Sequence record: MN709127.1
From: Escherichia phage Ec_Makalu_002
Length of the DNA stretch: 64,000 bases
Reading direction: 5' to 3' (one strand)
The translations under genes were made by a program, and so were the position numbers. Every line of letters begins with the position of its first letter. The first letter of the stretch is position 1. The notes beneath the pieces were generated by a model. It was not told where the DNA came from and made no database searches. It saw only the letters and a program-made list of their open reading frames with translations. Shown one piece after another: positions 3,217-64,000 of this stretch.

Positions 3217-5040
3217 TTAGCTACACATCCACTCTTTACGGCGGTCTGAATCTTCGCTATAGAGCAAATCGAATAGCTCTTTATAGTTTTCCGGTAACGT
3301 GATGATCTCCATGACAGGATCATTGATCACGCGATGATAATCTGATTCTGTAAGCGATGCTAACCCTTTGATATATCGAATGTTATAACCTTTGATATTA
3401 TCTCGGTCGTTCTCGAAATCTTCTAGGTCATAATACCATCGAACATCATCACCTTTCTTTGGTTCTGCAATGATAATAGGCGTTTTGATAAACCGGATTC
3501 GTCCATCTTCGAACAATTCAGGCCAACGTGCAAAGAAAGAGATCAGACTAGGCTTAATAGATCCGATCCCGTCAGTATCCGCGTCAGTCATAATCGCAAT
3601 ATTTTTGTATTGCATAACTTCCAATGCATCAACACCAAATTGCAAGCCAGTGATCGCCATGATGTTAAAAATTTCGGCATTCTTAACGATCTTTGCCTCC
3701 GGTTGTTCCCACGTTGTAAGAGTTTTACCTCGCAACGGGAAACCTCCATGTAAATCTTGATCACGTACAGAGATCAGATAGTTGATCGCGGAGTCACCCT
3801 CCGTCAGAAACAGGGTAGTTTCTGCGTCAGTTCCAATAAGGTTAGCTTTAACGTGTTTTGCTACCTTAGCCCGTTTTGCTGCCTTTGCTGCCTTAGTCGC
3901 TGCCGCTTTATCTGCTGCCTCTTTGCGTGCCAGGACTACAGCAATAATAGGCATGATAATGTTTTCTTTCTTAGCAATGACCTTAGCCAGCTTTTTAAAA
4001 TCAAGATCAATGTGACGCTTGATATCACCAGTCGGGTTAGTCAATCGCTCTTTTGTCTGTGAATCAAAGCGCAGGTTAGGCAATTCACGAACAATAAGAA
4101 TACAGGTCAAACCAGACTTAACCGCAGCTTTAGTAACATCAACCTTATATTCTTTCTTGATTCGTTTTACAATCTCTTCACAAAGATCATCTGTCACATA
4201 GTCTACGTGTGTTCCCCCGTTTTTGGTAAACAGACCATTAGCAAAGGATACAGATTTAAAACCTTCACCCTCAACCGCAGGAACTAGGGCAAGTGAAAAG
4301 TTTTTATCTTCAATGACAAACGGATCATCATTATAGAGTTTAGCATAGTCCTTGAACTTGCTAACAATACGTTTACCATTAAACTTAAACGTGATCTTAG
4401 GAAAGATTACGCTCAATGATTGCAGACGATCATGAACGATATCTAAAACAGAGTTGTCCATCATATAGCCTTCGAAGTGATCGAAGTCTGGACAAAATGT
4501 AACCTTTGTTCCTTTTAATTTTGATGGTTTTGATGACCATGTGATATTTTCAGCACCGTTGGTACATTGAACGGTCATTTCTGTTTCACCGTCACAGGTT
4601 ACACCAGTAAACCAATCGCTAAAGAAATTTGACAACGAAGATCCTACGCCGTTCATCCCTTGCGTTAATCGATTGGTATCATCAAAGTTAGATCCGGCTT
4701 TTGTTCTTGTCCATGCGGCGACTGGTTGCGGAATCTGCGTACCCTCTGGGGTAGTGACCATATGTTGAGGAATACCGCGACCATTGTCTGTTACCGTAAC
4801 AATATTGTTTTGGATATCGACGCTAATCACATTGGCAAATTCAAAATTAGTGCGGATCGCCTCATCTACAGAGTTGTCGATGATCTCATCAATGATTTTA
4901 ACCAGTCCAGGAACGTATGAAATTTTTGTCCACTTACCGAACAGGAAACGTTGATGTTCTTCGTAAGTAGTTGATCCTATGTACATTCCTGCACGCTTAA
5001 GGACATGTTCACGATCCGATAAAATGCGGAACTCACTCAT
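3217..5040 (-). CDS. 39: DNA topoisomerase II large subunit, gp39 with gp60 portion fused (GyrB-like)
   Basis: 607 aa; N-terminus MSEF..ILSD.EHV.KR.GMYIGS and DNGRGIP match T4 gp39 from memory; single continuous ORF. Confidence 0.85.
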   Translation of the reverse strand: MSEFRILSDREHVLKRAGMYIGSTTYEEHQRFLFGKWTKISYVPGLVKIIDEIIDNSVDEAIRTNFEFANVISVDIQNNIVTVTDNGRGIPQHMVTTPEGTQIPQPVAAWTRTKAGSNFDDTNRLTQGMNGVGSSLSNFFSDWFTGVTCDGETEMTVQCTNGAENITWSSKPSKLKGTKVTFCPDFDHFEGYMMDNSVLDIVHDRLQSLSVIFPKITFKFNGKRIVSKFKDYAKLYNDDPFVIEDKNFSLALVPAVEGEGFKSVSFANGLFTKNGGTHVDYVTDDLCEEIVKRIKKEYKVDVTKAAVKSGLTCILIVRELPNLRFDSQTKERLTNPTGDIKRHIDLDFKKLAKVIAKKENIIMPIIAVVLARKEAADKAAATKAAKAAKRAKVAKHVKANLIGTDAETTLFLTEGDSAINYLISVRDQDLHGGFPLRGKTLTTWEQPEAKIVKNAEIFNIMAITGLQFGVDALEVMQYKNIAIMTDADTDGIGSIKPSLISFFARWPELFEDGRIRFIKTPIIIAEPKKGDDVRWYYDLEDFENDRDNIKGYNIRYIKGLASLTESDYHRVINDPVMEIITLPENYKELFDLLYSEDSDRRKEWMCS

Positions 5041-5314: not shown

Positions 5315-5983
5315 TTATCCCCTTTGTTTCTTAACTGAATTTGGATCTGGATTTTCTGGCAAGTCTTCCAGACCCATAGCATAACGTTGTGCATAGATTA
5401 GCATAAGAATATCGCGAGCGCAATCATGAATTGCATCATGTGCGATGAATCCGTCTAATGTACCCATTGGTAGCGGACACTCACACATACCACGATGCAT
5501 TAATGTGCGCTCAATGGCGGTGCGAACATCTCGGATGTTCCAGAATCGCACAGGTTCAAGATTAAACGTCTCGCGGGTATTATGAGCACGTCGAATCATA
5601 TCAACTAGTAACGGAATATCAAACGCATTACCGCGTGACCACATTACGGATTTAACCGGATCTACTCCTACGGATTCACAGAATGCGTTAAAACGCGCTA
5701 AACCTTCTTTGGTTGATACTTCCGTCCCATTTGTGATTAATTGCTTTCTCATGCCTTCTGAGGCGGTATTCTTCCACCATTCAACCACACCATGATCAAA
5801 GATCCTTACACCTTTCTGGGAAGGAATATCAAATTTTACCAGAAAGGAATTATCAACCAGTTCTTTAAATGTCGGTGGATTGTGTGGGTCTTCTTTAAAT
5901 CCGATTGCCGCCATATTGATTACCGCCCCATCAGGCGGATAACCTAAACTTTCAAAGTCAATCATTAAATCCACTGGAAGCAT
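5315..5983 (-). CDS. dexA: exonuclease A (DEDD 3'-5' exonuclease)
   Basis: MLPVDLMIDFESLG and FWNIRDVRTAIE resemble T4 DexA; start at internal ATG 5983. Confidence 0.8.
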   Translation of the reverse strand: MLPVDLMIDFESLGYPPDGAVINMAAIGFKEDPHNPPTFKELVDNSFLVKFDIPSQKGVRIFDHGVVEWWKNTASEGMRKQLITNGTEVSTKEGLARFNAFCESVGVDPVKSVMWSRGNAFDIPLLVDMIRRAHNTRETFNLEPVRFWNIRDVRTAIERTLMHRGMCECPLPMGTLDGFIAHDAIHDCARDILMLIYAQRYAMGLEDLPENPDPNSVKKQRG

Positions 5984-62283: not shown

Positions 62284-62472
62284 TACTGATTCCTCAAATG
62301 AAAATATTTATTAACAATTGTCGCTTTGCGACGTGCCGTAGGCACTGACTACTTTTTAACCGAAACAAATTTTTATTATTCTAAAGATCTTTCTTCGTTT
62401 TGGTTATGTTTTAACCAATAACTATATTTTTATACAGTAATAAATAAAACGGGTACTATACGAGGACTTCTT

Positions 62473-62727
62473 ATGACAGAAGACATTTTGTTAAAACTCT
62501 ATGATCGTTTGGATAACGAATTAGCAACATTGCGGGGTGAAGTTCTCTATTTGTCTAAATGTAATACAGATCTGCTTAAGCAGATTGCAGAAAGGGATGA
62601 CCAAATAAAATCCCTTTCAGGTGCATTACGTGACCGCGACAAGGCATTAGAGATTTTACAGCGTGTTACCAATAAGGAAGAATTAAAAGACTTCTTACAT
62701 GGTTATGCTCATGCTATCGATCTATAA
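62473..62727 (+). CDS. hypothetical coiled-coil protein (plus strand)
   Basis: 84-aa ORF; SD GAGGA; converges with gene 2 on a shared hairpin. Confidence 0.5.
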   Translation: MTEDILLKLYDRLDNELATLRGEVLYLSKCNTDLLKQIAERDDQIKSLSGALRDRDKALEILQRVTNKEELKDFLHGYAHAIDL

Positions 62728-62754
62728 TAAAAAAGCCCGTCATTGACGGGCTTA
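62726..62754. terminator. bidirectional hairpin terminator between convergent genes
   Basis: AAGCCCGTCATTGACGGGCTT; T-run on minus strand. Confidence 0.6.
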
Positions 62755-62757
62755 ATC

Positions 62758-63579
62758 TTATGCATCCTTCCAAACTTTCCTTGCGTCGTATTTCTTGCCT
62801 TTTGACATAAACTGATATGTAGGCATATAGATAATATTGCTCCAGTCTTTCGGGCTAATCTCAACAAGTTTTGTTTTAATGTGTCCCGGCAAGTATGCTT
62901 TGATCATGTGATCACTACCACGCATACCTTTTACATCGCTCCATTTGATTTTTAAGCGTGTTTTATTGCTCAAGGTAGGCGTAGATGCATATTGCTTTAA
63001 AAGTGCTTCCAGAAACTGCTGACGGGCTTTAGGCGTTACATAGTGTAAGTTAAGACCCAGCATTACAGTATTACCCGCCTTTGTCTTAGAATCACCCAGA
63101 CAAATGATCAGCGGGAAAACATCCCAATATGGCAAAGTGTCTTTATACTTCGCATCATACATAAAAGTATAGATTCGCCCTACTTGCGGTTTTACAATCT
63201 GGTGTCCCTTTATTCCCGCTTTTATTGTTTTGGTAAACCATTCCTGTGATTTTTCTTTAGGACGACTCTTTGATACAGCACGCATAGACGCACGAAAATC
63301 ATTAATCATCATCATTGCGCGTTGCTGCTTATTGAGACCCTTTGCACCTTTCCCTTTTAGTTTTTCAACTTCTATTGCTGTTTTAATTTCGCTGGCATAA
63401 CGAGACATACTTTTAGTGAAAGTCGCATAGGCTATTCCCTTAGAATCTGCAAATGCTTTAGCTGTCATGCCTTTGGCTTTTGCTTTCGCAAATTCTACAC
63501 CCAATTCGACCCACTGTTTAGACTTTCGCTTTTGGGGAGACGGCTTTTCGTCTTCTGTGATTATTTCAAATACGCTCAT
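62758..63579 (-). CDS. 2: DNA end protector protein gp2 (positional)
   Basis: ORF track 62758..63711; start moved to ATG 63579 (MSVFEI...) with SD AGGATAA; 273 aa, basic. Confidence 0.5.
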   Translation of the reverse strand: MSVFEIITEDEKPSPQKRKSKQWVELGVEFAKAKAKGMTAKAFADSKGIAYATFTKSMSRYASEIKTAIEVEKLKGKGAKGLNKQQRAMMMINDFRASMRAVSKSRPKEKSQEWFTKTIKAGIKGHQIVKPQVGRIYTFMYDAKYKDTLPYWDVFPLIICLGDSKTKAGNTVMLGLNLHYVTPKARQQFLEALLKQYASTPTLSNKTRLKIKWSDVKGMRGSDHMIKAYLPGHIKTKLVEISPKDWSNIIYMPTYQFMSKGKKYDARKVWKDA

Positions 63580-63613
63580 AATATTATCCTCTATGTTTAT
63601 GTATGTTACACAC

Positions 63614-63642
63614 TTGACAATCCTCTTTGCTATTGCTAAAAT
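63614..63642 (+). promoter_or_regulatory. plus-strand sigma70-like promoter (TTGACA-N17-TAAAAT)
   Basis: upstream of plus-strand HNH ORF; divergent from gene 2. Confidence 0.5.
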
Positions 63643-63705
63643 GCAGACGAAAATAAACAGCGATACTTGTTGATAAATATCATTATACCATAGGAGTAAC
63701 CTTAG

Positions 63706-64000
63706 ATGCAAGATATTAAGAACAAAATTTTGATGCAGTTTCCGAATGCAGATATCAAGTATTTAGAAAAGTATCTAGAAATTTGTGCAAACCCAGATAA
63801 GGATGGGGAATTAGAGAGGCATCATATTCTACCAAAATCAATTTGGAAGGAATATGAAGACCTTAAAATTCATGATTTTAATGCTGTTCACTTGAACACC
63901 GTTCGTCATATGATGGCACACTACTATTTCAGTAAAGCAACAAATTCCATTTGGAAGTCTGTTGTTATGATGTTTAATACCAGAATTGATATTATGAAGG
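63706..64000 (+). CDS. HNH homing endonuclease-like protein (5' part; runs off window end)
   Basis: MQDIKNKIL...ERHHILPKSIW..., HNH-type signature; SD AGGAG; no stop before 64000. Confidence 0.55.
   Translation, partial: MQDIKNKILMQFPNADIKYLEKYLEICANPDKDGELERHHILPKSIWKEYEDLKIHDFNAVHLNTVRHMMAHYYFSKATNSIWKSVVMMFNTRIDIMK

Follow-up and report, generated by a model that had tools for sequence, protein, structure and literature searches.

The plus-strand open reading frame (ORF) that starts at position 63706 of the 64,000-nucleotide stretch of Escherichia phage Ec_Makalu_002 analysed here (MN709127.1; hereafter the window) is probably the 5' third of a free-standing MobD-like HNH homing endonuclease gene. 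It would be borne on a selfish cassette of about 1.5 kb in Krischvirus, the RB49-like T4-type coliphages to which the window belongs. This reading is carried by a complete catalytic motif, by homology to T4 MobD, by the insertion itself, by the linkage of the insert to a particular allele of gene 4, and by the near-identity of the cassette across different phage backbones. A search of the literature found no experimental work on this gene. In one study (PMC11611945), Ec_Makalu_002 is credited with an 'HNH-type homing endonuclease ORF131' that Makalu_001 lacks, and the ORF numbering suggests that this may be the gene at 63706.

The evidence for insertion comes from comparison with related phages. 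Positions 62400-64000 of the window are matched by 58 phage records. In 56 of these, the match ends at window position 63594, and gene 4, a head completion gene on the minus strand, is followed by gene 2 across a gap of 11 bp with no insert, an arrangement seen in RB49, Ec_Makalu_003, UPWr_E1, and G2494. In the window and in the two other records (PHB13 and Cognac), an insert of approximately 1.14 kb occupies the junction of genes 4 and 2 and encodes a protein of 340 aa on the opposite strand. PHB13 and Cognac both have a plus-strand ORF of 1023 nt between genes 2 and 4, which their records label a hypothetical protein and whose products are 99-100% identical to the 340-aa endonuclease. The exact 340-aa protein (P0001) was also recovered from 22 assembled metagenome contigs, each time between genes 2 and 4. 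No close relatives of the endonuclease were found in IMG/VR, and no paralogs of its ORF are present in the 64-kb window. Among close relatives, the gene is thus present sporadically and at one fixed site (2 of 58 Krischvirus records, plus the 22 contigs).

Alignment with RB49, PHB13, and Cognac places the left junction at 63594/63595, immediately past the CTA that serves endonuclease-free relatives as the stop codon of gene 4. The left part of the inserted cassette, which as a whole comprises the insert of about 1.14 kb and some 375-400 nt of foreign gene 4, occupies 63595..64000 and continues past the end of the window. In the relatives, the endonuclease ORF and gene 4 share 12 nt at their 3' ends. 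The first-pass annotation of this DNA had proposed, from the letters alone, an insertion in the gene 2-4 interval, and had advised that its absence be sought in close relatives; the comparison with RB49 and the other phages confirms the former, and the latter was observed at the exact site in 56 of the 58 records.

The left-hand neighbour, gene 2 (DNA end protector, PF26869; 62758..63579, minus strand), is ordinary backbone sequence and differs from that of the endonuclease-free Ec_Makalu_003 at only 1 of 822 bases. The minus-strand neighbours of the ORF in the window are gene 1 (dNMP kinase), gene 3, and gene 2. The ORF does diverge from gene 2, as was first noted, but there was no pre-existing divergent interval: in Krischvirus, genes 4 and 2 are co-oriented on the minus strand as an operon, and the endonuclease gene lies antisense inside this late operon.

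Other features of the neighbourhood were recorded alongside. A conserved plus-strand ORF of 84 aa with a coiled-coil-like sequence (62473-62727; PHROG 17832; RB49p130) separates genes 3 and 2, to which it is antisense, and occurs in every Krischvirus relative examined. Behind it, at 62733-62753, comes a terminator-like hairpin (9 bp, of which 6 are G-C), where relatives annotate a terminator on both strands. Cognac has a second extra gene (L002:3359-4387) directly downstream of gene 2, whose stop it overlaps. Its product of 342 aa matches PHROG 681 'endonuclease' (E 3.5e-79) and Pfam CapR repeats, and has a GIY-YIG/T5orf172-like C-terminus, so that two putative homing endonuclease genes flank gene 2 in this phage. 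Finally, gp4 of the relatives (L004:5012-5485) has a precomputed Pfam match to Tn7_TnsA-like_N (PF08722), a restriction-endonuclease-like fold that is curious for a head completion protein encoded beside an endonuclease cassette.

The part of the endonuclease gene that lies in the window (63706..64000, plus strand) comprises the first 98 of 340 codons (MQDIKNKILMQFPNADIKYLEKYLEICANPDKDGELERHHILPKSIWKEYEDLKIHDFNAVHLNTVRHMMAHYYFSKATNSIWKSVVMMFNTRIDIMK), from the ATG at 63706 to the window end, which cuts the still open frame. These 98 residues are 100% identical to residues 1-98 of P0001; the last 242 codons were read from the near-identical relatives, and their integrity in the phage's own genome is assumed. 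The HNH-type signature picked out by the first-pass annotation (ERHHILPKS) corresponds to residues 37-45 and proves to be part of a full motif, HH..N..H..H, which is also complete in the full-length protein as read from the relatives. The residues of this putative HNH (beta-beta-alpha-metal) catalytic core, H39, H40, N59, H68, and H72 (63820..63921, plus strand), occupy invariant alignment columns: together with L42 and P43, they are unchanged in 47 homologs with 19-36% identity, and the columns hold too in 89 sequences aligned to the window fragment. All of the motif falls within the window, with a spacing of HH, 18 residues, N, 8 residues, H, 3 residues, H. We take the HH-N-H-H pattern to be a colicin-type H-N-H, with a metal ligand plus general base, a structural Asn, and two metal ligands.

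Structure prediction is in agreement with this assignment. In the AlphaFold model of the 98-aa fragment (pLDDT 94.7), a strand-strand-helix arrangement surrounds the conserved residues, with strands at 37-40 and 60-63 and a helix at 65-79 (pLDDT about 98); in the full-length model (pLDDT 85.7), the conserved residues again lie on a strand-strand-helix unit. Searches of the PDB with Foldseek returned nothing significant for either the full-length or the 98-aa model; the fold searches are only weakly supportive. Sequence and profile searches of the PDB retrieved no HNH structure, and their matches to TRPM1 and centrin, in the helical or C-terminal region, are spurious. Scores against the Pfam models were below threshold for both HNH (PF01844; 12.8 bits versus a cut-off of 21.4) and AHH (13.1 versus 22.3), each with an E-value of about 0.1, and NCBIfam yielded nothing for either the fragment or the full-length protein.

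The protein matches phrog_655 'homing endonuclease' (E 7e-15; 3.6e-10 for the fragment alone) and phrog_12434 'HNH endonuclease', and an exhaustive HMMER search identified 258 relatives at E <=1e-3. With tblastn, genes of roughly 25% identity were detected in many T4-like phages, where they are annotated as MobD-like or mobD, HNH, or homing endonucleases. When the family profile was compared with T4 MobD using hhalign, the match reached a probability of 99.6% (E 5.7e-25) over 208 columns that span the nuclease core, a NUMOD3-like middle region, and a C-terminal module. In 90 homologs, the Pfam matches were to NUMOD3 (50), HNH (16), HNH_5 (13), and HNH_4 (8), the HNH-type matches being weak (best E 4e-5). 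The family is a divergent branch that is poorly covered by the Pfam HNH models, and its membership in the HNH class is argued from the motif and the MobD homology rather than from fold matching.

From these comparisons, the N-terminal 100 residues or so, which lie wholly inside the window, are predicted to form a beta-beta-alpha-metal nuclease. The nuclease would be followed by a helical linker related to NUMOD3 repeats; the middle region of the 340-aa protein itself falls below NUMOD3 scoring. The C-terminal module of MobD (W..YD.LY.LW...GYP..Y) is present in two tandem copies, at residues 225-275 and 292-337 approximately, which match MobD in BLASTP with E-values of 4e-8 and 4e-4. These two modules presumably bind DNA.

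The start signals reported by the first-pass annotation were located upstream of the ORF on the plus strand: a Shine-Dalgarno sequence (AGGAG, 63692..63696) 9 nt ahead of the ATG, and a sigma-70 promoter of early type (63614..63642) made up of TTGACA (63614-19), a 17-nt spacer, and TAAAAT (63637-42). In a consensus scan, this promoter scored 11/12 and had a TG at the extended -10 position; transcription is predicted to start near 63649. A site as good appeared in 99 of 20,000 shuffles (0.5%) of the 126-nt upstream region, in which promoter-like sites overall are not above chance (6 found versus 6.0 expected). Across the 64-kb window, there is a single sigma-70-type site of at least 11/12 on the plus strand, the one upstream of the endonuclease gene, versus 32 on the minus strand, a bias that fits an early-gene region transcribed leftwards. 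The promoter hexamers are the same in 9 of the 10 endonuclease-bearing loci compared, the exception (L005) being changed at 63615, within the -35 hexamer. The promoter call is reasonable, and its function is predicted from the sequence.

A second candidate element, GATAAATA (63672..63679, plus strand), lies 26 nt ahead of the ATG and matches the T4-type late promoter TATAAATA at 7 of 8 positions. The same variant is also found upstream of gene 4 in relatives; in L004 it stands at 3967-3974 and 5517-5524. Late-promoter matches with one mismatch are no more frequent than expected by chance, and a role of this element as a late promoter of the endonuclease gene is speculative. The 5' leader folds no better than shuffled sequences, in the window variant and in the consensus alike, which rules out a hairpin that sequesters the ribosome-binding site, as in I-TevI or Aeh1 mobE.

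The window copy of the cassette departs from all other copies at five positions (63603, 63688, 63691, 63697, and 63701), all of them upstream of the ATG. Four of these changes cluster in 14 nt around the Shine-Dalgarno sequence (consensus AACACAGGAGGAACATTAG, window ACCATAGGAGTAACCTTAG), where the AGGAGG of every other cassette becomes AGGAGT. The 295 coding bases of the window copy are those of the commonest cassette sequence, and PHB13 and Cognac have one coding difference each. In an exact-pattern scan, the leader variant of the window was found in none of the metagenome contigs. These changes may serve to tune translation down, or they may mark a short patch of conversion.

The presence of the insert is linked to an unusual allele of gene 4. 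Gene 4 of carriers is about 80% identical to that of non-carriers; for gene 2, carriers and non-carriers together share 96-99.9% identity. The divergence lies in a tract that extends from codon 34 of gene 4 to its stop, with approximately 76% identity over about 400 nt, and beyond codon 34 the identity jumps back to 99-100%; the gene 2 side has no such tract. The codon differences in the tract are mostly synonymous (50 versus 21 non-synonymous), a pattern consistent with a functional allele of foreign origin rather than with damage by mutation. Among 118 phage records that match a gene 4 query, this allele was found only in the two endonuclease carriers.

The cassette as a whole (insert plus tract, 1522 nt) shows only 0-3 base differences among eight loci, and 9-11 in Cognac, whereas the gene 2 sequences next to these same cassettes are up to 35 of 822 bases apart (up to 4%). 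In addition, the gene 2 alleles of carriers interleave with those of non-carriers, and one carrier locus (L009) is a single base from the endonuclease-free G2494. A near-identical cassette across differing backbones, together with a linked allele, is the footprint of intronless homing with co-conversion of the flanks, a process described for the seg and mob genes of T4 (PMC2988022). Along with the MobD homology, this footprint supports the mobile homing endonuclease that had been suspected from the window. The near-identity of the cassette could instead stem from a single recent origin followed by spread through ordinary phage recombination.

Nuclease activity, mobility, the target site, immunity of carriers, and use of the promoter are inferred, and they may act together as follows. 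During co-infection with an endonuclease-free relative, the enzyme would nick or cut the genome of that relative, in the manner of MobA, MobE, and I-HmuI (PMC2988022). The break would then be repaired by recombination from the endonuclease-bearing genome, and this repair would copy the endonuclease gene along with the adjacent gene 4 sequence of the donor, which, being different at about one base in four, would render carriers immune. Because immunity is required of carriers, and because the sequence on the gene 2 side is that of the ordinary backbone, the target is expected in the divergent part of gene 4 or across the 4/2 junction; the most likely candidates are the 3' four-fifths of gene 4 and the gene 4/gene 2 junction that the insert disrupts. 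The endonuclease gene, antisense between late genes 4 and 2, would probably be transcribed early from its own sigma-70 promoter.

Two further elements bear on how the neighbouring genes might be expressed in carriers. The 3' end of gene 4 in carriers (L004:5030-5065), about 1 kb past the end of the window, contains a perfect 10-bp inverted repeat, AACCGAACAC ... GTGTTCGGTT, which comes directly after the endonuclease stop codon and falls within the final 15 codons of gene 4. The corresponding hairpin has a dG of -16.5 kcal/mol (z -5.2) on the plus strand and of -15.9 (z -4.6) on the minus strand; the non-carrier allele does not fold there (z 0.7) despite nearly the same local protein sequence, and the hairpin may be a two-way terminator created by synonymous recoding. 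On the minus strand of the insert, neither TATAAATA nor GATAAATA was found, only TCTAAATA at 63760-67, and a late promoter for gene 2 inside the insert was rejected. Directed toward gene 2 is an extended -10-like element, TGgTATAAT (63682..63690, minus strand), which has no good -35 and is TGtTATAAT in other cassettes; its role as a replacement promoter for gene 2 is speculative.

These elements allow a more elaborate reading, which we consider unlikely: that the cassette is an integrated module that splits the late 4-2 operon and supplies replacement signals. In such a module, the early sigma-70 promoter would drive the endonuclease antisense to the late genes, the recoded 3' end of gene 4 would keep the local protein sequence while making a strong two-way hairpin, and the minus-strand extended -10 (TGnTATAAT) would act toward gene 2, beside an immune allele of gene 4. 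If this were true, the timing and coupling of gp2 and gp4 expression would be rewired, and this would be the first case of early expression described for a homing endonuclease of a T4-type phage.

The same data were weighed for the possibility that the gene is a decaying or inactive remnant, spread through the free recombination of T4-type phages, possibly owing to an advantage conferred by the linked gene 4 allele itself. T4 MobD is uncharacterised and has never been demonstrated to be active (Table 1, PMC2988022), the prevalence of the gene is low (2 of 58 records, none in IMG/VR), and the window copy has a weakened Shine-Dalgarno sequence amid its four clustered changes. However, the ORF of 340 codons is intact; 22 contigs encode an identical protein, the proteins of PHB13 and Cognac are 99-100% identical, and all catalytic residues are kept. 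Moreover, 0-3 differences per 1.5 kb of cassette beside gene 2 sequences up to 4% apart indicate a very recent spread rather than long residence and decay, and make a remnant improbable.

We attach a low probability to a domesticated HNH nuclease, whether used for the exclusion of competitors, for the degradation of host or rival DNA, or for a head-completion or DNA-end role beside gp2 and gp4. The location between the genes for the DNA end protector and for head completion would be in keeping with the last of these, and an early-type promoter, reported for none of the T4 homing endonucleases (PMC2988022), would suit an anti-competitor role. Yet a gene that is missing from about 97% of otherwise near-identical phages is dispensable, the architecture and homology are those of Mob-type homing endonucleases, and a linked, co-converted flank is a hallmark of homing; marker exclusion by homing endonucleases already accounts for the exclusion of competitors. 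Least credible, and highly improbable, is a unit of the PeSL or moron type (a promoter-early stem-loop joined to an ORF) that would have travelled by recombination of repeated promoter elements. PeSL cassettes are known in Krischvirus, where they have been described for RB49 and phi1 (PMC2839356), and the present cassette brings a strong early promoter of its own as well as a stable hairpin at the 3' end. But of the defining PeSL element (a repeated sigma-70 promoter of ~100 bp with an adjacent G/C stem-loop) only the promoter is present, the upstream region having no stem-loop (z = 0.23) and sharing at most 13 nt with the rest of the window, while the site lies in a conserved late operon rather than in a hyperplastic region, and the replacement of about 400 nt of gene 4 would be left unexplained.

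As a putative homing endonuclease, the protein has its closest characterised relatives among the Mob endonucleases of T4. Like MobD (NP_049710), it is encoded by a free-standing gene between phage genes and combines an HH..N..H..AH core with a NUMOD3-like middle region and a C-terminal module; it differs in its length (340 aa versus 259 aa) and in the doubling of the C-terminal module, and local identity is about 25-33%. The mobD gene runs in the same direction as its neighbours and lacks a dedicated promoter in non-coding DNA (PMC2988022), whereas the window gene is antisense and has an early-type promoter. MobE and MobA, for which nicking and preferential inheritance have been demonstrated (PMC2988022), share the HNH class and the presumed mode of spread, of which the linked gene 4 allele would be the signature here. 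Their insertion sites are different (nrdA/nrdB and 60.1/39), and homing in the present case is deduced from sequence comparison.

With respect to orientation, a parallel is T4 SegD, whose gene lies between late genes 23 and 24 and, alone among the homing endonuclease genes of T4, runs against the neighbouring late structural genes (PMC2988022). The window gene is likewise antisense to neighbouring late genes; however, SegD belongs to the GIY-YIG family and no SegD-specific promoter has been found, whereas the window gene has a sigma-70 site of 11/12. More generally, no T4 homing endonuclease has an early promoter (PMC2988022). The closest homologs outside Krischvirus, P0007 and P0010 of other T4-like phages (37-39% identity), are encoded in the same 1-3-2-4 neighbourhood, but at the gene 3/gene 1 (dNMP kinase) site, co-oriented with their neighbours, and with a length of 242-276 aa (L018:3509-4339, L019:3518-4246). 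I-HmuI of phage SPO1 has a similar modular organisation (HNH plus NUMOD), and 3 of 90 homologs match Pfam I-HmuI_NUMOD-like; in contrast, I-HmuI is intron-encoded, and searches by sequence and by fold gave no direct match to its structure.

With this gene, the T4 superfamily gains a further free-standing HNH homing endonuclease, from Krischvirus, a genus in which few are present. The cassette would be an ordinary kind of phage mobile element, yet a clean example of spread through a nearly clonal phage population, with a sharp co-conversion boundary and a candidate target region in an essential head-completion gene. As such, it may offer a convenient system in which to study how nicking Mob-type enzymes promote homing and whether early antisense expression is tolerated. 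For the genomics of phage therapy, the cassette would explain the patch of 76% identity in gene 4 among phages that are otherwise 97-99% identical.
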